Origin: Escherichia phage RB43
DNA: 64,000 nt
Direction: 5' to 3' (one strand)
Sequence record: NC_007023.1
Each line of letters opens with the position of its first letter. Within the stretch, counting starts at the first letter, position 1. The notes below the pieces were generated by a model that had not been told where the DNA came from, did not search any database, and saw nothing but the letters and a program-made list of their open reading frames with translations. The position numbers were made by a program, and so were the translations under genes. Below, piece by piece: positions 13,214 through 57,422 of this stretch.

Positions 13214-13620
13214 TGGAATCGAAAGTTTATAGAATGTCTCTTGACAAATGCGGTCGAATAGACCGCAGTTTTATCAAGTGTGGTGAGTTAAGAAATTGCG
13301 TTTACTGTATTGAAATCGACGGCGTGATCGTGTATGTTGGTAAAGCAAAAGACATGTGGAAGCGATTAGATACGTACAGGAATTCAAAATACTGGAGGGA
13401 AGCAAACCCCAGCAACATTTTGAAAACCGCACGTCTGGAAATGGCAATCAAAAAACGTAAGCGTGTGAATCTCATTGTGACAACACACGATGAAGAGACA
13501 TATCATGATTATGAAATCAACATGATCCGAAAAATCAATCCTGAATGGAACAAACAGCATTATGACAAAGCTAACAAAAAACCAGAAAACACTCTTCAAC
13601 CAATTGATGAAGCTGTGTAA
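13210..13620 (+). CDS. denA: Endonuclease II (GIY-YIG family)
   Basis: 136 aa, same length as T4 DenA; GIY-YIG-like VYCIEIDGVIVYVGKAKDMWKRLDTYRNS. Confidence 0.8.
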   Translation: MMESKVYRMSLDKCGRIDRSFIKCGELRNCVYCIEIDGVIVYVGKAKDMWKRLDTYRNSKYWREANPSNILKTARLEMAIKKRKRVNLIVTTHDEETYHDYEINMIRKINPEWNKQHYDKANKKPENTLQPIDEAV

Positions 13621-14719
13621 CGAAACCGAATGCTTTTACTTTATTGATCAAAAAACCGTAATGCAGACCCACGTTCGCATTTTCAACTATCGTATGGCGA
13701 GTTATTCCGATTGGTTGAAACCTGGTGCGCTGGAATGTCGCGGCATTATGTTTGCAATGGATGGGGATACCCCCGTAAAACTCGTCAGCCGTCCTATGGA
13801 GAAGTTTTTCAACTACGCCGAGGTAAAGGCATGGGAAGCACTTAAAGAGGCTCCTGTGACGATTGGCGACACCGTAGTTGATGTGATGATTAAGGAAGAT
13901 GGTTCCCTGATCTCTACATTCTGTGATTCCGGCTATCTGGGCGTTAAGTCAAAAGCGTCTGTACAGTCTGAACAGGCTATGGACGCAATGAGCGTGATCC
14001 AAACTAACCGCGCATTGTTCGAACGCCTTACAGAACTGGTTCGCGATGGATTCACCGTCAACATGGAATACGTCGCACCAACTAACCGTATTGTAATTGG
14101 TTATCAAGACCCTGCTGTTGTGATTCTGAACATTCGCAACAACGATACAGGTGAATACGTACCGTATCAGGATATTTTTGCTGATGCTGTGTTGCGTCCT
14201 TACCTGGTTGAACGTGAGAAAATCGAAATCACCGATCTGGATGCGTTTATTGCAGATGCGTACACGAAAGAAGGTTTCGAGGGATACGTAATCAAGACGA
14301 ACAAAGGTTTTGTGAAAGCAAAAACAAACTGGTACGTGAATCTTCACCGCACGAAGGATAGCATCACCAATAACAAAGATTTGTTCTTAAATATTGTTGA
14401 TAACACAGTTGATGACCTGAAACAATTATTCCTGGATGATACATATTCACTCAAGAAAATTGATGCGTTTGAAACTATGTTCCTCGATAGTCTGAATCGC
14501 CTGTCTGCAAAAGCATTCAAGGCGATTGAAGATACTAAAGGATTGTCCCGTAAGGATTACGCAATCAAACTGAGTTCGGATTTAACCCCAGATGGGCGCA
14601 TTATCTTTGGCCCGATGATGCGATATTTCGATGATACCGATAAACAAAAATTGGTTGATAACATCGTTTCTCTGATGGTTAAAAATTACGAACAGTTCAT
14701 ACCGGAAGAGTATAAATGA
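13562..14719 (+). CDS. rnlA: RNA ligase 1 / tail fibre attachment protein gp63
   Basis: KEDGSL adenylation motif; N-terminus LFNQLMKLC...YSDWLKPGALECRGIMF aligns with T4 RnlA; start ambiguous (13562 or 13607). Confidence 0.85.
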   Translation: MTKLTKNQKTLFNQLMKLCNETECFYFIDQKTVMQTHVRIFNYRMASYSDWLKPGALECRGIMFAMDGDTPVKLVSRPMEKFFNYAEVKAWEALKEAPVTIGDTVVDVMIKEDGSLISTFCDSGYLGVKSKASVQSEQAMDAMSVIQTNRALFERLTELVRDGFTVNMEYVAPTNRIVIGYQDPAVVILNIRNNDTGEYVPYQDIFADAVLRPYLVEREKIEITDLDAFIADAYTKEGFEGYVIKTNKGFVKAKTNWYVNLHRTKDSITNNKDLFLNIVDNTVDDLKQLFLDDTYSLKKIDAFETMFLDSLNRLSAKAFKAIEDTKGLSRKDYAIKLSSDLTPDGRIIFGPMMRYFDDTDKQKLVDNIVSLMVKNYEQFIPEEYK

Positions 14720-15042
14720 ACATACCAGCTTTACCAAAGTTAAGTTCTTTGGTATGGCCTGTGATTGTGGGGCTATCTTTGATAGCCCTTTTTTATATTG
14801 CAGTCGATACCAAAATAGAAAACAGACAATTGTCTAATGATATCAAAGCATTACAAGCTGATATCAAGAAAGTCAAAGAGACAAACAACACCAACACAGT
14901 GATATACGTAGAGCAAAAGGCGAAGGATCAGCAACTGGTGAAAGATGCGGGACGTAAAGATCTGTTATTCAAAAAGCCAGGACTGATTGAAATCAAGATC
15001 AACAAATCATTCGAAGAGTATATGGAGGAATTCGATAAATGA
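14716..15042 (+). CDS. i-spanin (Rz-like; T4 PseT.3 equivalent)
   Basis: N-terminal TM helix then coiled-coil periplasmic domain; position upstream of o-spanin and pseT as in T4. Confidence 0.65.
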   Translation: MNIPALPKLSSLVWPVIVGLSLIALFYIAVDTKIENRQLSNDIKALQADIKKVKETNNTNTVIYVEQKAKDQQLVKDAGRKDLLFKKPGLIEIKINKSFEEYMEEFDK

Positions 15043-15365
15043 AAATCTCCGTGTTAGTCCTTATCATCGGCGCTCTGTTGGTTGGGTGTGCTGAAAAGCC
15101 CCCAGAAAAGGTTTTACCGACCTTACCTGCTAAAGTGAATCCGGTTGATGTTAAATGGAAAGTGATCGCAGAAGTACGGGAAATCGACGGGAAGAAATAT
15201 CTCGTTATGCCGTTTGACGGAAACCCATATGTTGCGCTATCATATCCAGACTCATTGGTTTTTCGTAGCTGGATGAATGATGTCAAGCGACAGAAAGATC
15301 AAACCGATAATATCCTATGTACAGTGGGATACCCAGAAAAATGTAAGTTGAGAAATTTAAAATGA
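15039..15365 (+). CDS. o-spanin lipoprotein (Rz1-like; T4 PseT.2 equivalent)
   Basis: Signal peptide with lipobox LLVGC. Confidence 0.65.
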   Translation: MKISVLVLIIGALLVGCAEKPPEKVLPTLPAKVNPVDVKWKVIAEVREIDGKKYLVMPFDGNPYVALSYPDSLVFRSWMNDVKRQKDQTDNILCTVGYPEKCKLRNLK

Positions 15366-16249
15366 ATCTGATTATTACTGTAGGCGTACCAGGTAGCGGT
15401 AAAACTACTTGGGCGAAAGAGAAAGCGCGTGAAATGGGGAACACGTTGACTGTTTCCCGTGATGACATCCGTCGAACCCTTTACTGTGCTGGCGGCGATC
15501 TCACAGGATACCGCTTCACCGAAGAGAAAGAAAACCTGGTCACTAAGTTACAGGCAGACATCGTGTTAAACGCTCTTGCTTCTGGTAAGAATGTGATTGT
15601 GCATAACACGCACCTGAAAAAAGGCGACCATGTTTACTGGAAAGAAATCGCGAAGTATACGAAAGTAGATTTTCACATCGAATGGATGGATGCTGATATC
15701 GTTGAACTTCTGAAACGCAACCATAAACGCGGTGTAAATGCTTTACCTGTTTCCCGCTTATGGGAAATGTTCGAACAGTACCGTAAATTACGCGGTTGGG
15801 TTCCGGCTATGCAGTTTGCAGATCCGAGCAAACCGAAATGCGTTATCTTTGATGTTGACGGTACTCTGACCAAAGTCGGACAGCGTAGCCCGTATGACTT
15901 CACGAAGGTAATCGACGATCCTGCTAACCCTCCGGTTCAGGAACTGTTCAGGATGTATAAAGCCGCTGGTTATGCCTGTGTTGTTGTATCGGGGCGTGAA
16001 GGTACGGAACAATGCGCACATGATACCAAAGCAAGCCTTACTGCGTATGATGTTGACCTGAGTGATGGTATTTTCATGCGTGAAGAAGGTGATCATCGTC
16101 ACGATTTTTACGTAAAAGAGCAAATACTTGTTGAAAAGATTCTCGATAAGTATTATCCTGTTCTTGCAGTGGACGACCGAGACACCCCAGTAGGGATGTG
16201 GAGAATGAACGGAATTCCGTGCTTCCAGGTTGATTACGGCGACTTTTAA
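15362..16249 (+). CDS. pseT: Polynucleotide 5'-kinase / 3'-phosphatase
   Basis: P-loop GVPGSGKTT kinase domain plus HAD phosphatase DVDGT; collinear with T4 Pnk. Confidence 0.9.
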   Translation: MNLIITVGVPGSGKTTWAKEKAREMGNTLTVSRDDIRRTLYCAGGDLTGYRFTEEKENLVTKLQADIVLNALASGKNVIVHNTHLKKGDHVYWKEIAKYTKVDFHIEWMDADIVELLKRNHKRGVNALPVSRLWEMFEQYRKLRGWVPAMQFADPSKPKCVIFDVDGTLTKVGQRSPYDFTKVIDDPANPPVQELFRMYKAAGYACVVVSGREGTEQCAHDTKASLTAYDVDLSDGIFMREEGDHRHDFYVKEQILVEKILDKYYPVLAVDDRDTPVGMWRMNGIPCFQVDYGDF

Positions 16250-18171: not shown

Positions 18172-18248
18172 GGCCCTTTAGCTCAATTGGTAGAGCGAAC
18201 CCCTCATAAGGGTGTGGTTTCCGGTTCGAGTCACGGAAGGGGCCACCA
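18172..18248 (+). tRNA. tRNA with anticodon CAU (Met or Ile2), atypical T-arm
   Basis: 7-bp acceptor stem GGCCCTT/AAGGGCC, D-arm GCTC-AATTGGTA-GAGC, anticodon loop CTCATAA, T-loop TTCGAGT, 3' CCA; T-stem needs removal of A18233 to be canonical. Confidence 0.65.
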
Positions 18249-41887: not shown

Positions 41888-42358
41888 TCAGTTTCGTTTC
41901 GATAAAGTTAAGGTATCACTGTTCTTACGAAGATGCAAACACTTTTTTGAAGAATTTGTTTCCGGTCTTTCTTTGTATGGGCGCATGGTCAACCGCTTAC
42001 CGTCCAATACTGTTGGTTTTCCATCCAGTTCAATCAGGATAAAGTTGCCTTTGCGATACTTCAACACGCCCTGGCTTGCCGACCATTCATCGTTATCCCA
42101 GTGGTTGTAATGCCATTCAACAACGGTATCGATTGGTATTTCTGGTTGATTTCTCATATTTGCTTTCCTTCGTTCTGATGCTTCTTTCAATTGTCGTATT
42201 TGTGGTATCAACTGTTGTGGTGGAACAGTATCTTCCCGTTTCAATGCCTTTCGAACTTGATCAACAAACCATTCGTATTTCGGACGGCGGTTAAGTTCTT
42301 CCCTTAGTCGGGCATTCTCTTGTTCGGCAATGCTTGCGCGTTTTCTGTAATCGGTCAT
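41888..42358 (-). CDS. hypothetical protein with N-terminal coiled coil (156 aa)
   Basis: ORF overlapping methyltransferase stop by 4 nt (likely co-translated). Confidence 0.5.
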   Translation of the reverse strand: MTDYRKRASIAEQENARLREELNRRPKYEWFVDQVRKALKREDTVPPQQLIPQIRQLKEASERRKANMRNQPEIPIDTVVEWHYNHWDNDEWSASQGVLKYRKGNFILIELDGKPTVLDGKRLTMRPYKERPETNSSKKCLHLRKNSDTLTLSKRN

Positions 42359-43263
42359 AGAACTTTCCTTATCTGTTTGGCTATTGCCTCGATAACTGGC
42401 ACGGAAACGGAGTTACCCGCTTGCTTGTATGCTTGTTTTTTACTCGATGGAATAATAAACGAATCTGGGAAGCCCTGCAAGCGAAAACATTCACGCGGGG
42501 TTAATCGTCGTGGGTTCTTCCCATCCTGTAACACCAGACACTGAACGCCGTCCTTGTAGTATTGCGCTGTGATGGTTCCTGTGTGCGTAGAATCGGCTGT
42601 GACGGCCTGATAACCAAACCCCTTACCGTTTGCCTTATTTCGTTCCTTACGCTCTCTAAAGCCTTTCCACGCGTTATCTGATAGGGTGTACGAATCATCA
42701 ACATCTTCGAGGATATCACCTACGCGCGTAGGGGTGCGCGGGGGAACCGGAAACGAAAAGAATACATCATCCAGGAAGCAGACAATAAACACACGTTCAC
42801 GTCGCTGGGGTAATCCGAAATCTTTCGTATTCAGTCGTTGATAGAATACGTTGTATCCTTCGGCCTCCAGAAGCCCGTAAATCGTTTTAAACGTCTTTCC
42901 CTTGTCATGGGTTAGCAATTCAGGCACATTCTCAAAGAACAGCACACGGGGCTTTTTAGCGCGTATAATGCGGAGGATTTCAAAGAACACCGTACCGCGA
43001 ACATCATCGAAGCCCAGTTTTAATCCGGCTTTACTGAATGCCTGACACGGGAACCCAGCCAACAGGATATCGTGATCAGGTACTTTGTTTTCATCAATGG
43101 CGAACAAGTCACCTTCGAGATTATCACCGCCCCAGTTAGCGGCGTATGTTTGCTGTGCGAATTTGTCGATCTCAGCAGTAAGCACACATTCAACACCGTC
43201 AAATGCGCGATCAAAGCCCATACGAACGCCACCAACGCCAGCGCATAAATCAATCAGTTTCAT
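42355..43263 (-). CDS. DNA (cytosine-5)-methyltransferase (Dcm-like)
   Basis: Canonical m5C MTase motifs: I DLCAGVGG, IV GFPCQAFS, VI ENV, VIII QRRERVF, X GNSVSVPV. Confidence 0.9.
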   Translation of the reverse strand: MKLIDLCAGVGGVRMGFDRAFDGVECVLTAEIDKFAQQTYAANWGGDNLEGDLFAIDENKVPDHDILLAGFPCQAFSKAGLKLGFDDVRGTVFFEILRIIRAKKPRVLFFENVPELLTHDKGKTFKTIYGLLEAEGYNVFYQRLNTKDFGLPQRRERVFIVCFLDDVFFSFPVPPRTPTRVGDILEDVDDSYTLSDNAWKGFRERKERNKANGKGFGYQAVTADSTHTGTITAQYYKDGVQCLVLQDGKNPRRLTPRECFRLQGFPDSFIIPSSKKQAYKQAGNSVSVPVIEAIAKQIRKVL

Positions 43264-43290: not shown

Positions 43291-43992
43291 ATGCTAATAT
43301 CAGCAAGCAGTGTAGACGAATTGAACAGCAAGGTCAACGAAATGCTGTCACAAGGGATGTACTTATGGGGAAGCCCGTTCGTTGTCCCATCCGATTATCT
43401 GAACCAAACACGATTCTTTCAACAGGTTTCAAACGTAAATCCTTCGAGCGGCGGAACCGATGGAAAGAGTGCGTATCAACTATGGGTTGAACAACCAGGC
43501 AATGAAGGGAAAACACTAGATGATTTCTTTGATTCCATTGCAGGGGTTCGCAAAAAATCAGAGGTGTTCTGGACGGGGCTTAGTCTGGTGATCCCAGAGG
43601 ATACGCCGACCAACTTCATCAACCTGATTAAAGGGACCATTCCGACTACCGGAACATTAGAACCGTTCTTCAAAATTACAGACAATAAGTTACACCCGTT
43701 TAACGAAAACTCAACATTAACGTTTAAGCTGAACCTGAAAGGTACTTTCACAGGGGCAACAACCGCACAGCGTAGCGTTACACTTGATTTTGTCGGTACA
43801 CAGGGCAACACCCTCACTCTGAACCGCAGCCAATCGGTAACTACTAGCACCCTTTCTTTCGTCACGTTCTTTAGTGTCGATAAAAACGGAAATATGGTTA
43901 CTAATGGTACTGCATTCAACATTTTCGCAAACGGTAGCCCGTTTACTGTATCCGAAGTTCTTTTAGTCGCCGAACAGCGTACTACTCAATAA
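43291..43992 (+). CDS. Lone plus-strand gene: beta-rich Thr/Asn/Gly-rich protein with tail-fibre-like motif (233 aa)
   Basis: AGAGGG RBS; motif GKSAYQLWVEQPGNEGKTLDDFFDSIAG resembles conserved tail-fibre segments; bounded by bidirectional terminator. Confidence 0.6.
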   Translation: MLISASSVDELNSKVNEMLSQGMYLWGSPFVVPSDYLNQTRFFQQVSNVNPSSGGTDGKSAYQLWVEQPGNEGKTLDDFFDSIAGVRKKSEVFWTGLSLVIPEDTPTNFINLIKGTIPTTGTLEPFFKITDNKLHPFNENSTLTFKLNLKGTFTGATTAQRSVTLDFVGTQGNTLTLNRSQSVTTSTLSFVTFFSVDKNGNMVTNGTAFNIFANGSPFTVSEVLLVAEQRTTQ

Positions 43993-44012
43993 CAAAAAAG
44001 CCCCGAAAGGGG
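43985..44012. terminator. Bidirectional terminator
   Basis: AAAAAAGCCCCGAAAGGGGCTTTTC. Confidence 0.7.
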
Positions 44013-44019
44013 CTTTTCT

Positions 44020-44283
44020 TTATGCTTCAAAATCAATTTCGTCGATCTTGTAAGACTCTTCATCGATATCAGCCCACAGAGTGACTTTAACCGTTTTACG
44101 GTCTTCGTACATGTCACGACCATCATAGCCGCCCGTGTACTCGCTGTGCGTCTGTTCATCCACTTCTAAACGCAGACTATCGCGCATGATTGGACAACAG
44201 CCTGTCCAGCGTAACAGAATCTGGGTGCTGTTCTGTGCCACCAACTCGAACATCTTTCAGGTGTAAAATAATATCGCTCATTA
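44020..44283 (-). CDS. one or two small hypothetical proteins (34 aa + 57 aa, or a fused form)
   Basis: Two overlapping protein-like frames (MSDIILHLKDVRVGG... and ...MRDSLRLEVDEQTHSEYTGGYDGRD...). Confidence 0.35.
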
Positions 44284-44559
44284 GTAGAACTTTCCATATG
44301 TGTTGAAATTGATACTTTCGTGGTTACGTTCATTGATCGTGATTTCATAATCGTAATCTTCATTAGTAACCGCGCGGTCGTGTTTGATAACGTTCACGTC
44401 ATAAACGCGGGATAACGCATGATACAAAGAATCACGGATCTTTTCAGCAATCTTCGCGGGTTCGCTATACATATTGAGCATATCAGCAACAATACCTTCT
44501 ACTCGCTGAATATCTCGCTGTTCGATGTATCCTACGTACAGGCTTACGTCTTTAATCAT
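44281..44559 (-). CDS. hypothetical protein (92 aa)
   Basis: ORF overlapping nucleotidyltransferase gene stop. Confidence 0.5.
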   Translation of the reverse strand: MIKDVSLYVGYIEQRDIQRVEGIVADMLNMYSEPAKIAEKIRDSLYHALSRVYDVNVIKHDRAVTNEDYDYEITINERNHESINFNTYGKFY

Positions 44560-45554
44560 TTGTAATACCCCAGAACATGATCTTTGTATACCTGTTCGAT
44601 AAAGTCATTCCAGAATTCCCGATCGACTTCTTTCGGATAGGTAGAGATTGCAGCAAGGCGTTCAACTTCGCCCATCACTTCCTCCAGTTTTTCCTGTACT
44701 TCGGCAAACGGGACATTACCAGCTTTAACCGATTTCAACAGGTCACTCTCAGGAAGAGGGTACACGATATCGCCGTGTTTGTAAATCTGTACTAACTGCA
44801 TACCACCGCGCAATGCGTGACTTAATGCTTTCCAATCGATCCCGTTGTTGGCTTCTGCTTGTCGTGCGCGTTCGCCATATTCATCCCAGAGCTTGTACAC
44901 GGATTTCTTCATTTCCGCTACGGTGATCGTGAACTGGAATTTACGACCCAATACTTCATAGAAATTCTGCATACCGCCTTTTTCGCTATAATGCAAAATA
45001 GAACGACAGAATTCATTGGTCGGTAGTTGGTCTTTGATGTCGCCAACTTTGATGTTTTCTATTGCATCACCCAGATTGGAAGGCATACGCACAACGCGAG
45101 TATTTGGGGTGTCTTGTAACACGTCATACACTTCACGCAGTGCAGCCAGGCGAGAACCTTTCACACCATATTTCGCGGCTTGCTTACGGACATAACCGAA
45201 CAGGCCAGTTAACTCCGTAGTGTAGAAACGCCAACGGTTAGCGCGGATATACTGCCAGATTTCAGAGTTAGCGATCAGCTTGCTATCATCAGCATGAAGC
45301 ATATCGAGCGCTACGGTATCACCATCACACGCAAGGCTGATGAACTTAGGCAGACTATACAACTGACGGTCTACGTCATCAACGGTGTTTTTAGAGTTCT
45401 TATCGCCCGTGCTCGTGTCGATAGTCTTCGGGGCTTTACCTAGCAAGATATCGCGTGGATGCGGGAGGAAGATCCCTTTATAATCTTTGTCGCTTGTCGG
45501 GGTGTTCAGCCCGTACAGGTGAGAACCGAACACAGTTTCCATTACAATTTTCAC
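44556..45554 (-). CDS. Pol-beta superfamily nucleotidyltransferase-like protein (332 aa)
   Basis: N-terminal minimal NTase motif VFGSHLYGLNTPTSDKDYKGIF (GS...hDhD) with later acidic residues; helical C-terminal domain. Confidence 0.55.
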   Translation of the reverse strand: MKIVMETVFGSHLYGLNTPTSDKDYKGIFLPHPRDILLGKAPKTIDTSTGDKNSKNTVDDVDRQLYSLPKFISLACDGDTVALDMLHADDSKLIANSEIWQYIRANRWRFYTTELTGLFGYVRKQAAKYGVKGSRLAALREVYDVLQDTPNTRVVRMPSNLGDAIENIKVGDIKDQLPTNEFCRSILHYSEKGGMQNFYEVLGRKFQFTITVAEMKKSVYKLWDEYGERARQAEANNGIDWKALSHALRGGMQLVQIYKHGDIVYPLPESDLLKSVKAGNVPFAEVQEKLEEVMGEVERLAAISTYPKEVDREFWNDFIEQVYKDHVLGYYK

Positions 45555-45943
45555 AATTCAACTCCCAGAGTTTTTGCAATTTCTTTCAATTGGTCAGTTG
45601 TGATATCAGGAACAGTCACACCGTAACTATGTCCAAACACGTATTTGATCTTAGCGGATAATTCCTCGCGATACAACTTTTCTTTGTACGCCTCTTCGCT
45701 GCGATAAACCTTAATACCGTTCCAATCGTTAGAACTTCCGGTTTTGCGGTCCAGCTTTTCGACGCAATATGATTTAAGATCTGTTTCTGTAGGGTTAGGC
45801 GATGCGTACAGATACTGACGCGCAACCTTATGAACATACAGAATACGCGGTTTTACACGGCAACGGTTATCATATCCACGTTCACCAGGATCATATAAGG
45901 TATCGCCTACTTTAACATCTGTTAAACTCATTTCATTTTCCAA
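45551..45943 (-). CDS. hypothetical protein (130 aa)
   Basis: ORF overlapping NTase start by 4 nt. Confidence 0.5.
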   Translation of the reverse strand: MENEMSLTDVKVGDTLYDPGERGYDNRCRVKPRILYVHKVARQYLYASPNPTETDLKSYCVEKLDRKTGSSNDWNGIKVYRSEEAYKEKLYREELSAKIKYVFGHSYGVTVPDITTDQLKEIAKTLGVEL

Positions 45944-46179
45944 CGTTTTGTTTTATCACAATAGAATACTGGCAATTTGGACAGGACAGGAGTCACCACA
46001 TCTTCACCAGTTTTCGTGTTATGCGTCATTTCGATTGTCAGCGAACGACCAGGCACGGGTTTCACAATATCCAGTTCCATGATCTCCCGATTACCTTTTG
46101 TGTTGATTTCTGCAACATAGTAATCGTTCCCGTTGATGTTAACAACATCACCCATAATTACGCTTCTGCTGTGTTTCAT
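45928..46179 (-). CDS. hypothetical protein (83 aa)
   Basis: ORF. Confidence 0.45.
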   Translation of the reverse strand: MKHSRSVIMGDVVNINGNDYYVAEINTKGNREIMELDIVKPVPGRSLTIEMTHNTKTGEDVVTPVLSKLPVFYCDKTKRWKMK

Positions 46180-46565
46180 TTGTTAATAAACCTTAACGTA
46201 ACGTGCAGGGATTCTAACACTCGTGCGTCAGTACCGTCAATAATCATCATTCCGATAAATTCTTTAGAGCTAACGGAATACATGCGACATAACAGGGAAC
46301 CATCTTTCGCGATATATTCAACGATATACTCACGGCGTGATGATTTGAACGAATCACCGACCATGACCGGACGTTCGACATTCTGGCGTTTTTTGGCTGT
46401 ATAACACAACTCGTTTTCGCCGTTTGGTGCGCAATCTTTACTTCCGATCGACATATCCGTTACAGTAACAGAATTCACAGAACCGCCGATCAGTAAGCTG
46501 GGTTCGCCAGCACCTACTTTCATGATTAGTGTCGAACGGTTTGCAACGGTTTCAGTCACAAACAC
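46176..46565 (-). CDS. hypothetical protein (129 aa)
   Basis: ORF; start uncertain. Confidence 0.45.
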   Translation of the reverse strand: MFVTETVANRSTLIMKVGAGEPSLLIGGSVNSVTVTDMSIGSKDCAPNGENELCYTAKKRQNVERPVMVGDSFKSSRREYIVEYIAKDGSLLCRMYSVSSKEFIGMMIIDGTDARVLESLHVTLRFINK

Positions 46566-46716
46566 GTAGCACTGTGGATTCGTTTTCTTTGGCGATTGAC
46601 TGCAAAATGAATTTGGTCTTCTCAGGCGTTCTCGAATGTCCGATTTAAAACACGATCACCGATCGTCAATGTTGTGGTTGAATCGACATCTTCGGTAGTA
46701 CGAATAATTGCTGTTT

Positions 46717-46986
46717 TCATGATAATTTCCTCTCAAATTCTTCATCAGATTTCCAGTACACGTTAAAGTTACGGCAATCGTGATCAGAAGTCAACGTATA
46801 TTTTTCATTTGTTTTTTCATCGGTGATAACCATCGTTTCATTCTCGATCGAGTCAACACCGTACACAAACACTTTGTCACCGCGTTTATTCAGGAACGCA
46901 TCACCTGTTTCAATCAACTGCCAGCAACTAACTGGCAACCCGCCCGAACAGATCGGACGGTTTACTAAACAGTAAGGATGTTTCAT
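46717..46986 (-). CDS. hypothetical Cys-containing protein (89 aa)
   Basis: ORF. Confidence 0.45.
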   Translation of the reverse strand: MKHPYCLVNRPICSGGLPVSCWQLIETGDAFLNKRGDKVFVYGVDSIENETMVITDEKTNEKYTLTSDHDCRNFNVYWKSDEEFERKLS

Positions 46987-47171
46987 TAATCAGCAAGCCT
47001 TATATTGTTCGGATCGGGAACGAAAGTATCCTTTTGAGTAACCATAAACACCAGGAAAGTAGCGATTTCAGGATCATCAATCACGTTGAATTTACGCTTA
47101 CCTTTCCAACGCACAGCGAGTTTGCCATTGTCCAGTTTCTTGATTGCTGCGACTTCTGATTTCGTAGTCAT
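46986..47171 (-). CDS. hypothetical protein (61 aa)
   Basis: ATG(rc) 47171 with AAAGGAG RBS downstream of conserved promoter. Confidence 0.5.
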   Translation of the reverse strand: MTTKSEVAAIKKLDNGKLAVRWKGKRKFNVIDDPEIATFLVFMVTQKDTFVPDPNNIRLAD

Positions 47172-47199
47172 GATTATCTCCTTTCGTTTCAGTACCCCT

Positions 47200-47228
47200 A
47201 ATATAACAAAAGCCCTACACGAATGCAA
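47200..47228 (-). promoter_or_regulatory. Conserved promoter cassette (TTGCAT-N17-TATATT)
   Basis: Minus-strand GCCCTTGCATTCGTGTAGGGCTTTTGTTATATT then leader ACTGAAACGAAAGGAG. Confidence 0.55.
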
Positions 47229-47333
47229 GGGCTTTTTCAACTTATCGACAGAAAGGACAACTAAAAGAGTCGCCGCTTCCACCATGTTTACGACACGCCG
47301 ATTTCTCGATCGGTGTCATTGTTAAAATTTTCA

Positions 47334-48392
47334 TTAGATACCTGTAAATGCTACGACAATCTGATAGTGGTCATCGAAGAATTCCCCTTGTCGTTGTACG
47401 ACCTCATGTAAGGGCATCCAGAACGCGTCTAACGCATCGTCAGAACCGCCCATAATACGTGGTAAACTTCCATCATTGTTAGGTTCTAACTTGATGTATT
47501 GCGCCACAGTCGGTTTTGAGAAGTGTACAGAACGCTTCGGATGATCGAACAGCATCGAATTGCGGATTGAACCACGAATAACCTTTTCAGGAACCTTGAT
47601 CCGAACCTCTTCGAGCAGTTCGCGGATCGCACAATCCAGGAACGTTTCATTTGCGTTTTTGTGTCCACCTGGCAGGGCTAGTGCGCCTTTTCCTGGTGCA
47701 AACTTACGACGAATTACCAGCAGGTGATTGTTGCACACAACCACGTTATCACCCGTGCAGCAGTTTAGCGCTTCTGGGTATGGGTAATTTTTGAATTTCT
47801 CCAATTCACTTTCCCATTTTTCGAATTCGTAGTACAGTCGCCAAAATGTATCCGTCATCATCCATGAATTGATATAACTCACAGTAGACGGAGGAACATA
47901 ACGAGATAGTTTCTTGTCCCATCCATTCTTATGCAAAAAGGATGGTTGGTCGTAAATCGGTCGCAGATAAATCTTCCCATCAACCTTAACCGGATCTACC
48001 GGAACATGAGTCCATCCAAACGCTTTCAGCCAGTATGAATCAGCATCTTTTTCGTAACCATAGATCGCGATGTTATCGCCTTTGGTTTCGTTGATTGCTG
48101 TACGAACAGAAGTTTTCCATTTTTCTTCGTTGTAAAGATAATCAGGAATATGAGCAAACTTAACACGACAAACATCTTCGTATTTGTATTCAGTCATCAG
48201 CCACGAAAAGATCATTCTTTCGCGTTCGTTCGCGGTCAGAGGATTTAAAACGTTGGGGTATGCGTAGGCAGAACCCAGGAGGATGTAAACGGTCTCCGAC
48301 TCTTCCAGTGCTTTACGCACCATCGCCGCATGACCATTATGGAAAGGTTGGAATCTGCCAATCACGACAGCTTTATCAAATTTGTGTTTCAT
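47334..48392 (-). CDS. Bifunctional NMN adenylyltransferase / Nudix hydrolase (NadM-Nudix type)
   Basis: N-terminal HxGH motif GRFQPFHNGH; C-terminal Nudix box GGHKNANETFLDCAIRELLEEV; GGAG RBS before ATG(rc) 48392. Confidence 0.85.
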   Translation of the reverse strand: MKHKFDKAVVIGRFQPFHNGHAAMVRKALEESETVYILLGSAYAYPNVLNPLTANERERMIFSWLMTEYKYEDVCRVKFAHIPDYLYNEEKWKTSVRTAINETKGDNIAIYGYEKDADSYWLKAFGWTHVPVDPVKVDGKIYLRPIYDQPSFLHKNGWDKKLSRYVPPSTVSYINSWMMTDTFWRLYYEFEKWESELEKFKNYPYPEALNCCTGDNVVVCNNHLLVIRRKFAPGKGALALPGGHKNANETFLDCAIRELLEEVRIKVPEKVIRGSIRNSMLFDHPKRSVHFSKPTVAQYIKLEPNNDGSLPRIMGGSDDALDAFWMPLHEVVQRQGEFFDDHYQIVVAFTGI

Positions 48393-48588
48393 AACGTGCT
48401 CCACGTTTAAAGGGTAATCATAAAACAGACGCAATAATCAATACACCAAGCAAACCGCCAATAAAGCCGAAGAATGACGAAATGAAGATAGACAATATAA
48501 TCTGTTTTATGTTCATTGTAGTATTCTCGTTTTAAGAGTCAAGCCCCCAGAACGGGGGCTTTAAAATCTTATTTACGAGAATCGAAAA

Positions 48589-49494
48589 TCACTTTGCCAG
48601 CGTAATCAGAACCCATGACAGTTTGAGGTACACCACCTTGTAGCGGGTAGAGTAGTTCATCTGTACATCCAGTTCTTTCCAGCGGATCATTTCTGGTGTA
48701 ATGGTGCGCTGCAACACGGCGTTCGCTTCTGCTTCTTTACGGGCCGCATACAGTTTAGCATCAGCATCACGTTCGTTTGCGAGTGCTTCATTTTCACGCG
48801 CCTGACGATTTGCTTCTGCCTGTTTTACCTGTTGTTGAGAAGTTTGCTCAACCTTCGCCAGTTCAGCACGAGCGGCGTTAACCTGTTCTTCACGGATCTT
48901 CGTGTTAGTTACCTGTTCCATGATAACATCTGGCAGGGTAATATCCTGCAAGAATACCTGTTTCACGGTGTAACCATACGGTCGCGCATACTCTTCAACT
49001 TCCTGCTGAATCGCAGTTTGCAACTGGTTCTGGATCTTTGCGTCGAACAGATCCTGTGCTTTCGGAACTGATTTACCGAATTCGCGAACAGTGGACAGCA
49101 ATTTTTCGGTTACGTATTTATCCAGAGCTTGTTCCTGGTCGCCAGCGTTGATACGGTTAATCGGTGCTTTGTTACCGTCGAATTGCAACATCACGGTCAT
49201 GTCAACAGTCGATTTAAATTTATCCTGGGACGGAACCTGCAACTTGTCGAATTTCTTCGCGATATCTTTCGTACTGAAAGTATCGAAGTCAGCCAGTGGG
49301 TTTACGATATGGAAACCAGGCATGACAGGTTTCGGAGAAACTTTACCCATAAAGGTCTGGGTTTTGACCGTACCGTCCTGTACGATGGTAAAGGAGTTCG
49401 GAACCAGCCACAGTGCAGCAACTACGCCCAGAGCGATCAGAGTGGTTTTCTTCGGGTTGTCACGGATAGTATTAATATTCATAGTATGTCTCAT
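48589..49494 (-). CDS. SPFH/band-7 (prohibitin-like) membrane protein
   Basis: N-terminal TM helix then SPFH-like core and long Ala/Glu/Gln-rich coiled coil. Confidence 0.6.
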   Translation of the reverse strand: MRHTMNINTIRDNPKKTTLIALGVVAALWLVPNSFTIVQDGTVKTQTFMGKVSPKPVMPGFHIVNPLADFDTFSTKDIAKKFDKLQVPSQDKFKSTVDMTVMLQFDGNKAPINRINAGDQEQALDKYVTEKLLSTVREFGKSVPKAQDLFDAKIQNQLQTAIQQEVEEYARPYGYTVKQVFLQDITLPDVIMEQVTNTKIREEQVNAARAELAKVEQTSQQQVKQAEANRQARENEALANERDADAKLYAARKEAEANAVLQRTITPEMIRWKELDVQMNYSTRYKVVYLKLSWVLITLAK

Positions 49495-55560: not shown

Positions 55561-56910
55561 TTAAAAGTTATCTTCGACGAATGCAGCGAGTCGCCCACGA
55601 TATACGGTATCCAGGATCACATGACTTGAATGACCGTACTCTTTAAGTTTTTCAACCGCATACACAAAACCGTTGTTTACGGCAGTGTTGCGCGGGTTGT
55701 CAATCTGTTTAATGTTCCCGCATAGTATCAGAAGTGTGTTCTCACCGCAACGGGAAATGATGGATTTAATTTCGTGATTGCTCAAGTTTTGACATTCATC
55801 AACAATCAGAACGGAACCTTTACCCGGATCAGGATGCCCGATTGAGCGCCCACGGAAGTAATACAGGCTGGGGAACTGTACAACGCCTTTCTCTAACAGC
55901 CCTTCGACGTACTTATCAACTTCCGGTTGATCTTTAAACAGAATGTTCAGGCTTGTAATACATGGTTCAATAGACGGTCGTAATTTTTCTCCCAGTGTAC
56001 CAGGTAAGAACCCGATTTCGCCCGACAGTGGGCTATCCGATTTTACATACATCACATTAGCAAAATGACCAGCATTTACCAGGTGCATAGCACCAGCAAC
56101 CGCCAGCATTGTTTTACCGGAACCAGCCGCGCCCATAATGGTCACTGCATCAATGTTTTTATCCAGAATGGAATCAACGAAAGACGCTTGCAACGCATCG
56201 CGAGGTTGAATTGTTTTCATCAGCTTGCGTTTCATCAGGTGTTCGTGTTTCAACGGCAACACTTCAAGCTGAAACTCTCCAGCATCCACCACACGCCCGA
56301 CAACCTCACCATAGGACAGGATGTATTGGTTAGGGTAGAAATCTACCTTGTAGTCGGCAAACGACGCATAGCTAATCAACGCAATATCGCCATTGTACCC
56401 AACAACATCAACGATGTTCCAGAAGTCGGTCAGTTCAATATAACCGGAATACAGAACATCACTATCTTTCAGTGTGTCATCGCCCGTGTACTGTTCAACA
56501 GGACAACCCTTAGACATTGCGATCAACAACATATTGATATCGCGGGTTACTAAGGTCGCTTTCTCCTGCAAACAGGTAGCGATAATGCGAGCATCTTGCT
56601 TATCAAGCGGGAACTCTTCACCACCGACATAATCGACGATACGCAGAGTAACGCTATCGGGTAAAGCTGGGTTTGTTTGGCCCAACGAAACCCCAGTTTG
56701 GGTAATTGCTTCATACTTCTGTCCCAGGACAATTTTAGACAGAAGTCGGATCACTAAACGTGCTTCGCGGGAAGTGTGTTCCTTTGATTTCAGGTGATCC
56801 AGTTCTTCCATTGTTGCAGCGGTAATGATGATCTCAGTACCAGGGGCAACATAAGAATAGATTGAATATGGGTTCGAGATTAAAACGTTGGTATCTAGAA
56901 CATATTTCAT
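55561..56910 (-). CDS. PIN-PhoH fusion ATPase (PhoH2/YlaK-like)
   Basis: N-terminal PIN domain (MKYVLDTNVLISNP...) and C-terminal PhoH P-loop GAAGSGKT with DE box LIVDECQN; AGGAAAA RBS. Confidence 0.85.
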   Translation of the reverse strand: MKYVLDTNVLISNPYSIYSYVAPGTEIIITAATMEELDHLKSKEHTSREARLVIRLLSKIVLGQKYEAITQTGVSLGQTNPALPDSVTLRIVDYVGGEEFPLDKQDARIIATCLQEKATLVTRDINMLLIAMSKGCPVEQYTGDDTLKDSDVLYSGYIELTDFWNIVDVVGYNGDIALISYASFADYKVDFYPNQYILSYGEVVGRVVDAGEFQLEVLPLKHEHLMKRKLMKTIQPRDALQASFVDSILDKNIDAVTIMGAAGSGKTMLAVAGAMHLVNAGHFANVMYVKSDSPLSGEIGFLPGTLGEKLRPSIEPCITSLNILFKDQPEVDKYVEGLLEKGVVQFPSLYYFRGRSIGHPDPGKGSVLIVDECQNLSNHEIKSIISRCGENTLLILCGNIKQIDNPRNTAVNNGFVYAVEKLKEYGHSSHVILDTVYRGRLAAFVEDNF

Positions 56911-57029
56911 AGAAGTTTTCCTGTTAATTGCGAGGTACGCGGATTCGCACCCCGCGTACTGCAATTACATACCCAAACGGATAATGTGAATGTATGGGAA
57001 AGGATGCAGGTTACTATTTCTCATGCAGA

Positions 57030-57422
57030 TCATGAGTGTTTGAACCAGTTCCCAACGGTCATCAAATTTTGTATTACATTCATCAAAATCAGATTGATCG
57101 CCTGATGCTTGATACTTCTACCACGAAAGATTGTGGTTAAATCCTGTCTAGCAGACAGCAGCATCAGATTTTCACAGTCGGCTTCATATCGTTGGGCTTC
57201 ACCTACTGCAAGTTGCTTTGTCGGGGCAACATAGATGTTCAGTGTACCTTTCGACTGTCTGATAATTTCAAACGCCGCTTTCGTTTTACCAGATCGACGG
57301 CCCATATCAAGCGCCGTTTCAAACGCCGCAACGCCCGTTGTATCTGCTTGTCCTTCCATTACGCGCATCAGGTGCATATTGCGCGATTGCTTAACAGCAT
57401 CAACGTAAAATTTTGAAAACAT
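57030..57422 (-). CDS. small P-loop-containing protein (130 aa)
   Basis: Walker A-like GRRSGKT. Confidence 0.4.
   Translation of the reverse strand: MFSKFYVDAVKQSRNMHLMRVMEGQADTTGVAAFETALDMGRRSGKTKAAFEIIRQSKGTLNIYVAPTKQLAVGEAQRYEADCENLMLLSARQDLTTIFRGRSIKHQAINLILMNVIQNLMTVGNWFKHS

Follow-up and report, generated by a model that had tools for sequence, protein, structure and literature searches.

NrdC.11 of Escherichia phage RB43, an RlaP-family nucleotidyltransferase with a probable role in phage tRNA repair

We analysed a 64,000-nucleotide (nt) stretch of the genome of Escherichia phage RB43, a T4-like Pseudotevenvirus (sequence record NC_007023.1), referred to below as the window, and in it an open reading frame (ORF) of 332 amino acids (aa). 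A preliminary description, made from the sequence alone, had presented this ORF as a Pol-beta-type nucleotidyltransferase (NTase) of unknown function with an overlapping upstream partner ORF. Judged by its sequence, the ORF is the ortholog of T4 nrdC.11 and a member of the PF10127/RlaP family. We propose, with a probability of roughly 0.6, that NrdC.11 is an RlaP-type RNA-repair NTase acting as the gap-filling enzyme in phage tRNA repair.

The gene itself is already known and ordinary, as it has been annotated as nrdC.11/nucleotidyltransferase since the RB43 genome paper. Nolan et al. (2006) described orthologs of nrdC.11 from RB43 and related phages and noted their COG3541 nucleotidyltransferase domain. 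PF10127 owes the name RlaP to the place of its genes in RNA-ligase operons (Burroughs and Aravind 2016, as cited in later work), and the biochemistry of bacterial RlaP has since been published (PMC12776372), so that the function can no longer be called unknown as it was in the preliminary description. With the gene annotated, the family named in 2016 and its biochemistry described in 2025, the assignment has little weight as a discovery. The T4-type subfamily extends, however, over more than 1400 clusters at 50% identity and about 1900 phage genomes, and the classic T4 Pnkp/Rnl1 tRNA-repair pathway may, as predicted here, have a third, unrecognised enzyme. If true, this would let phages survive RloC-type nucleotide-excising anticodon nucleases, where simple religation fails.

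Assignment of the RB43 protein to the NrdC.11 type of RlaP

The gene, its start signal, the conserved catalytic residues and the domains of its product are located in the window as follows.

44556..45554, minus strand: NTase ORF, nrdC.11 ortholog, 332 aa, GTG start, stop codon at 44556..44558
45562..45566, minus strand: Shine-Dalgarno sequence GGGAG, 7 nt 5' of the NTase GTG and inside the end of the upstream ORF
45522..45527, minus strand: G10-S11 of the NTase, invariant in 33 homologs
45489..45491, minus strand: D22, invariant in the same homologs
45483..45485, minus strand: D24, likewise invariant
45369..45371, minus strand: D62, third carboxylate, likewise invariant
45153..45554, minus strand: N-terminal catalytic NTase domain, residues 1-134, alpha/beta in the AlphaFold2 (AF2) model
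44931..45113, minus strand: beta-rich inserted subdomain, about residues 148-208, five strands in the AF2 model
44559..44930, minus strand: C-terminal helical domain, residues 209-332, in the AF2 model

The Pfam family PF10127 (RlaP, 'RNA repair pathway DNA polymerase beta family') matched the protein well above its gathering cutoff (48.7 bits, cutoff 23, E=1e-12), residues 2-132 corresponding to profile positions 19-142 of 249. T4 NrdC.11 (NP_049709.1) matches the same portion of the profile at equal strength and is 50.4% identical to the RB43 protein across 336/336 residues. In PHROGs the protein belongs to phrog_388, 'nucleotidyltransferase' (E=3.9e-120 over residues 1-331). No other Pfam family matched at E<=0.01, and no NCBIfam model matched. 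Homologs were found by tblastn in 1904 phage records, 1462 of which cover at least 80% of the protein, those of T2/T4-type phages being 51-52% identical to it. In an exhaustive profile search, 6332 cluster representatives (50% identity) reached E<=1e-3 and 1434 reached E<=1e-30; among the best 150 matches listed, almost every one was full-length. Many T4-like genomes (e.g. ON157416, MT515753, MT764206 and OK275722) label the homolog 'thioredoxin', which looks like an error spread from the gene name, NrdC being the T4 thioredoxin.

The Pol-beta signature first noticed in the 332-aa ORF holds: G10, S11, D22, D24, D60, D62 and D84 are invariant among 33 homologs of at least 52% identity. Profile-profile alignment (hhalign) with canonical short RlaPs covers residues 4-134 (E=3e-5) and pairs G10-S11/D22/D24/D62 with the invariant S26-G27/D39/D41/D72 of the canonical proteins; paired as it is with D72, D62 is the third catalytic carboxylate. 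Past residue 134 neither Pfam nor hhalign detected sequence similarity to canonical RlaP.

The N-terminus of the 332-aa translation reads MKIVMETVFGSHLYGLNTPTSDKDYKGIF. The GTG start is favoured by the spacing of the GGGAG sequence, by the N-terminal motif MK[TI][VI]xE, kept in the homologs including T4 NrdC.11, and by a beta-strand predicted across residues 2-9 in the AF2 model. The original GenBank entry, 'NrdC.11 [Escherichia phage RB43]', begins at an internal ATG and has 328 aa, and is thus probably 4 aa too short. Positions 44000-46500 of the window are 99.9% identical to HE981739/HE858210.

The whole AF2 model has a predicted local distance difference test (pLDDT) score of 86.4. The 'long helical region' said to follow the signature is only partly borne out: the C-terminal domain is helical, but a five-stranded beta subdomain intervenes (strands at residues 152-156, 163-167, 183-190, 194-201 and 204-207; block pLDDT 85-90). 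Its first half varies in length among homologs, alignment columns 150-195 being gap-rich, and it has no match in the RlaP profile, which stops at residue 132. Two motifs are invariant among the 33 homologs: a basic one just past the catalytic domain, R123-K124-Q-A-A-K128-Y-G-V-K132-G-S-R135, and one in the C-terminal domain, E225-x-G227-x-R229-A-R231-x-A-E234-x-N236...D240-W-K242. The two best-conserved motifs fall in stretches of lower confidence (block pLDDT 65-75), a pattern that would fit flexible substrate-binding loops.

In a Foldseek search of the Protein Data Bank (PDB) the nearest solved folds were HalB, 3c18 and kanamycin NTase. When the PDB was searched by sequence, neither the NTase alone nor an NrdC.11 profile nor a canonical RlaP profile gave a true match. 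The resemblance to HalB raises the question of a HalB-like or cGAS/DncV-like (CD-NTase) signal enzyme, making an oligonucleotide or cyclic nucleotide (e.g. oligo-dA) that mimics or jams a host immune signal. We consider this very improbable. Membership in the CD-NTase/SMODS class or in another defence family was ruled out, with no PADLOC match at E<=0.1 and no Pfam SMODS or CD-NTase match; cGAS and DncV structures were absent from the best 50-60 fold matches, and no effector-type domain was matched in the gene cluster, whose other ORFs are small (up to about 180 aa). The Hailong protein HalB was rejected at the sequence level, as it shares 13% identity with the NTase and no profile-level relationship. 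Fold-level resemblance is thus all that speaks for a HalB-like signalling or decoy activity, and such an activity is hardly to be expected.

The likenesses to CD-NTase/SMODS, minimal nucleotidyltransferase (MNT) and CCA-adding enzymes put forward in the preliminary description found no support, with PADLOC silent, RlaP alone in Pfam and folds of other types nearest. A CCA-adding enzyme was rejected for lack of a PF01743, PF12627 or PF13735 match at E<=0.1, PF01743-type matches being easily obtained for bacterial neighbour genes of NrdC.11-type NTases; nor were class I or II CCA enzymes among the closest solved folds. The outcome opposed to the first proposal, namely a tRNA nucleotidyltransferase of the housekeeping kind with its full set of domains, is not literally what was found, but the protein does fall in a named and previously described family. 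An MNT, an NTase of about 100-150 aa with a HEPN toxin, does not describe the RB43 protein either. That it is an MNT- or aminoglycoside nucleotidyltransferase (ANT)-type enzyme, AMPylating either a protein, as in toxin-antitoxin systems, or a small molecule, for instance an aminoglycoside, is scarcely credible: the kanamycin NTase match belongs to generic fold matches weaker than those to HalB and 3c18, 332 aa is far above the size of an MNT, the neighbour is a beta-barrel protein and not a HEPN partner, no such Pfam families were matched, and E. coli proteins are not labelled by RlaP (PMC12776372). Among the activities initially offered, the evidence favours modification of RNA.

RNA-repair context and proposed function

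Apart from nrdC.11, the genes of the window that bear on RNA repair lie on the plus strand.

13562..14719, plus strand: rnlA, T4-type RNA ligase 1 (Rnl1), 45% identical to T4 RnlA; Pfam RNA_lig_T4_1 and T4_Rnl1_C (C-terminal tRNA-binding)
15362..16249, plus strand: pseT/Pnkp, polynucleotide kinase/phosphatase, 39% identical to T4 PseT; Pfam AAA_33 and HAD_PNKP
18172..18248, plus strand: tRNA-Met with CAT anticodon, the sole phage tRNA gene, about 2 kb downstream of the rnlA/pseT cluster

Together with Rnl2, encoded beyond the window (44% identity), they give RB43 a complete T4-type tRNA repair kit of Rnl1, Pnkp and Rnl2. Two 108-aa ORFs without a Pfam match lie between rnlA and pseT in a single plus-strand cluster (13562..16249). 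This cluster is about 30 kb from nrdC.11 and on the opposite strand, so that the association holds at the level of the genome only. Rfam and tRNA scans gave nothing beyond the known tRNA-Met.

From a scan of 185,579 species genomes, 80 loci with full-length NrdC.11-type proteins were kept, and their neighbours were clustered and representatives profiled. The proteins are 28-46% identical to the RB43 NTase, except for one on a phage-like contig (82%). Many of the loci belong to large contigs of bacteria, which reach 3.7 Mb. The exception, NZ_JBHSCL010000010.1 (178,077 bp), comes from an assembly of Flagellimonas marina, a marine member of the Flavobacteriia, which was most likely contaminated by an enterobacterial T4-like phage.

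A canonical RlaP of 254 aa (PF10127, E=6e-81) is encoded at 10 of the 80 loci, in 9 of them directly downstream of the NrdC.11-type gene. A CCA-adding/PolyA_pol+HD protein occurs at 9 loci, mostly directly upstream, RtcB at 4 and a small metallophosphoesterase at 5. The locus of a Nitrosospira metagenome-assembled genome (L035, 3709-10277) has the order RtcB - RtcA - NrdC.11-type - RlaP - Hen1 - AAA, and the tandem of a long and a short RlaP is also present in L020, L032, L039, L051, L053, L055 and L059. Two Campylobacterota loci (L079 and L083) read CCA/PolyA_pol+HD - long NTase - RtcB. Independently of the phages, these bacterial loci tie the long NrdC.11 type to RNA repair. The tandem arrangement suggests that the long NrdC.11 and the canonical RlaP are not redundant paralogs.

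The activity that can be expected of the family is known from two Pseudomonas RlaPs, PfRlaP and PaRlaP, which add 1-2 nucleoside monophosphates (NMPs) or their deoxy forms (dNMPs) to the 3'-OH of RNA, prefer Mn2+, and are inactive on DNA and protein (PMC12776372). The crystal structure of PfRlaP consists of an N-terminal NTase domain with three strictly conserved Asp and a C-terminal helical domain, the last helix of which is packed onto the NTase domain (PMC12776372). RlaP prefers broken tRNA and, of the two halves, the 5' one, and when it acts before ligation on a tRNA lacking one anticodon-loop nucleotide, aminoacylation is regained; the authors of the study proposed RlaP as an antidote to 'smart' ribotoxins such as RloC (PMC12776372). 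The same study (Carruthers, Fatma and Huang, bioRxiv, December 2025) placed T4 NrdC.11 in cluster 5 of the PF10127 sequence similarity network (SSN), as an uncharacterised member (PMC12776372). Our literature search found no experimental paper on a phage NrdC.11.

Besides fragments, RlaP labels rRNA-sized RNA and full-length tRNA, with little specificity for the nucleoside triphosphate (NTP) (PMC12776372). This would agree with tailing or repair of RNA 3' ends away from anticodon gaps, either rebuilding damaged 3'-CCA ends of tRNA or tagging host or phage RNA and so altering its stability, as would the position of the NrdC.11-type gene directly downstream of a CCA-adding/PolyA_pol+HD gene in Campylobacterota and the division of labour suggested by the tandem with canonical RlaP. 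The preference of the bacterial enzyme for the 5' half of cleaved tRNA (PMC12776372) is opposed to it, however, and neighbours such as RtcB, RtcA and Hen1 indicate the repair of breaks. We regard tailing as possible but rather unlikely.

We therefore favour gap filling in tRNA, which is supported by the orthology with T4 and the family assignment, the intact D22/D24/D62 and G10-S11, a confident model of the NTase fold, the repair kit of the phage and the bacterial operons. In the proposed mechanism, a RloC-type host anticodon nuclease would cut tRNA, taking out one or more nucleotides, and Pnkp would heal the ends. NrdC.11 would then extend the 5' tRNA half at its 3'-OH by 1-2 untemplated nucleotides, using NTPs and probably Mn2+, and Rnl1 would seal the nick, so that a fraction of functional tRNA would be regained and phage translation could continue. 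The authors of the RlaP study pointed out that its product, a 3'-OH end, is incompatible with RtcB (PMC12776372); this difficulty does not arise in RB43, because such an end suits the 5'-phosphate ligases Rnl1 and Rnl2.

Several points weigh against this role. Nucleotide addition to a 3'-OH is known only for PfRlaP and PaRlaP, which belong to SSN cluster 1a, whereas NrdC.11 is in cluster 5, and homology to these characterised RlaPs is detectable over the N-terminal 130 residues or so only. The long type has an additional beta subdomain, and its C-terminal domain differs, so that its substrate or product could differ too. In neither RB43 nor T4 does nrdC.11 adjoin rnlA or pseT, the tandem with canonical RlaP in 10 bacterial loci argues for a non-identical role, and T4 is viable in the laboratory after the loss of nrdC.11-mobD.3.

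Some of these observations, namely the domains peculiar to the long protein and the bacterial tandem, together with the structural nearness of the catalytic domain to HalB, can also be cited for a distinct product of the long NrdC.11, such as a protein-primed or RNA-primed (deoxy)oligonucleotide that would counterfeit or quench a host immune signal, the barrel protein encoded upstream being a possible cofactor in RB43-like phages. We give this idea little credence.

The upstream gene and the surrounding region

NrdC.11 is encoded in a packed cluster on the minus strand, of which the following features concern us here.

45551..45931, minus strand: PF24203 (Phage_ProQ_C_like)/phrog_3032 protein, 126 aa, ATG start (a TTG at 45943 would give 130 aa)
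44020..47285, minus strand: packed early-gene cluster containing the NTase gene, all junctions overlapping by 4 or 1 nt
43996..44017: perfect bidirectional hairpin terminator, closing the minus-strand cluster and following a plus-strand gene

The ORF upstream of the NTase gene does overlap it by 4 nt, as had been observed: it ends at 45551, its TGA and the GTG of the NTase sharing GTGA. Its length is likelier to be 126 aa than the 130 aa first given, because the ATG at 45931 overlaps the stop codon of the preceding gene as ATGA, fits the N-termini of the homologs and is the start annotated in HE981739. The protein matches PF24203 over residues 5-126 (64.2 bits, cutoff 27, E=2e-17), a domain precomputed on all its close homologs, and phrog_3032 (E=1.5e-36). 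In its AF2 model (pLDDT 88.8), residues 11-61 form a small beta-barrel, after which come two helices. Foldseek against the PDB gave nothing below E=0.04, the best matches being generic barrels (eL21, MBT), and no Pfam ProQ_C match was obtained at E<=0.1.

Several observations are in favour of a two-component module, in which the barrel would be an RNA-binding or specificity subunit, a regulator or a substrate of the NTase. The shared GTGA couples translation of the two ORFs; the PF24203 gene lies at most 0.5 kb upstream of the NTase gene in 11/11 examined T4-like genomes and contigs with both genes, including Pantoea phage Phynn, where the partner is only 33% identical; and the Pfam name of PF24203 refers to the C-terminal domain of ProQ, an RNA-binding protein. 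Against the module, overlaps of 4 nt are usual here: among the 46 same-strand junctions in the 26 kb around the NTase gene, 17 have an overlap of exactly 4 nt and another 4 one of 1 nt, and in the NTase operon 7/7 junctions are -4 or -1. The overlap was for this reason rejected as evidence of partnership.

The distribution of PF24203 also counts against the module. The gene was found in 161 phage records, about 8% of those with the NTase and all of them Klebsiella/Enterobacter/Cronobacter/Citrobacter-type T4-likes; the family comprises 41 clusters among 5.8 billion proteins and 8 IMG/VR contigs, and is absent from T4 and most of its relatives as well as from the profiled recurrent bacterial neighbours. 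T4 MobD.1, which belongs to the y05I family, was ruled out as a counterpart. The junction itself is loose: the genes overlap in some phages, are 2 nt apart in Miro-like phages and 18 nt apart in one IMG/VR contig. A 64-aa ORF separates the two genes in one lineage. RB16, to which RB43 is most closely related, has a 177-aa ORF in this place (L097:4369-4902), which by its sequence looks like an HNH/AP2-type gene. No RlaP gene adjoins the distant family members of Streptomyces and of a metagenomic phage contig.

Narrow distribution, intervening ORFs and unlinked distant members thus rule out a universal NTase-PF24203 module, and a dedicated module of the two proteins is unlikely. What had been called a partner ORF is a clade-specific syntenic neighbour, co-transcribed and translationally coupled with the NTase gene as are most genes of the cluster. 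A function of its product as an RNA-binding accessory is at most conceivable. In T4 (NC_000866), the HNH endonuclease gene mobD (56429-57208) lies just upstream of nrdC.11. With freestanding homing-endonuclease-type genes inserted directly upstream of nrdC.11 in two separate lineages, RB16 and T4, homing may have targeted the conserved 5' end of this gene more than once.

A scan of the NTase operon for sigma-70 promoters did not rise above the shuffled background. Between 43900 and 47400, the window differs from the resequenced RB43-GVA (HE981739) by only five single-base indels (44190, 44205, 46569, 46644 and 47216), which probably stem from sequencing errors in one RB43 record or the other. 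Those at 46569 and 46644 cut an annotated 180-aa coding sequence (window equivalent 46176..46718) to a 129-aa ORF, and those at 44190 and 44205 touch a small gene at about 44020..44284.

On the side of the terminator, a lone plus-strand gene amid minus-strand early genes (43291..43992) codes for 233 aa that include an Sf6-type tail needle knob domain (PF16532, E=9e-35), an odd place for a structural-type domain in a T4-like phage. It is followed outwards by a C-5 cytosine DNA methyltransferase gene (42355..43263, minus strand; PF00145, E=6e-94; RB43ORF127c in Nolan et al. 2006), whose synteny with the NTase block is seen in related phages (L015 and L002). Just upstream of the NTase operon, 47334..48434 (minus strand) encodes a bifunctional 366-aa protein with cytidylyltransferase-like (NMN adenylyltransferase-type) and NUDIX domains (phrog_395; Pfam CTP_transf_like and NUDIX), a KVP40 NatV/NadR-like NAD salvage enzyme (RB43ORF138c in Nolan et al. 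2006). The region is flanked by a gene for an SPFH/Band 7 protein (48589..49494, minus strand; RB43ORF139c).

Comparison with known systems

The closest known system is T4 NrdC.11, which has the N-terminus, the invariant motifs and the partial PF10127 match in common with the RB43 protein. Both genes are located in the early region downstream of tk, rI and rI.-1. Their flanks differ: T4 nrdC.11 has mobD and then mobD.1 (y05I family) upstream and the gene of the AAA protein NrdC.10 downstream, whereas RB43 nrdC.11 has the PF24203 gene upstream and a gene for an unknown 92-aa protein downstream.

Bacterial RlaP of cluster 1a shares with NrdC.11 the Pfam family, the aligned GS...DxD...D core, the combination, in NrdC.11 as modelled by AF2, of an NTase domain with a C-terminal helical domain, and the association with RNA ligase or RNA-repair genes. 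The RB43 NTase is about 75 residues longer, carries the inserted beta subdomain and falls in SSN cluster 5. Its gene is separate from the ligase genes in the phage, and in bacteria the long type appears as a second paralog beside canonical RlaP.

CCA-adding class II enzymes and poly(A) polymerases (PF01743) likewise add nucleotides to RNA 3' ends without a template and belong to the Pol-beta superfamily, and genes of this family adjoin NrdC.11-type genes in Campylobacterota; the head-neck-body-tail architecture and the HD domain of CCA-adding enzymes are not found in the RB43 NTase. HalB (PDB 9dbh), an anti-phage oligodeoxyadenylate synthase, differs in its length of 217 aa, without the beta insert or the long helical domain, and in working with the HalA channel, which is absent here.

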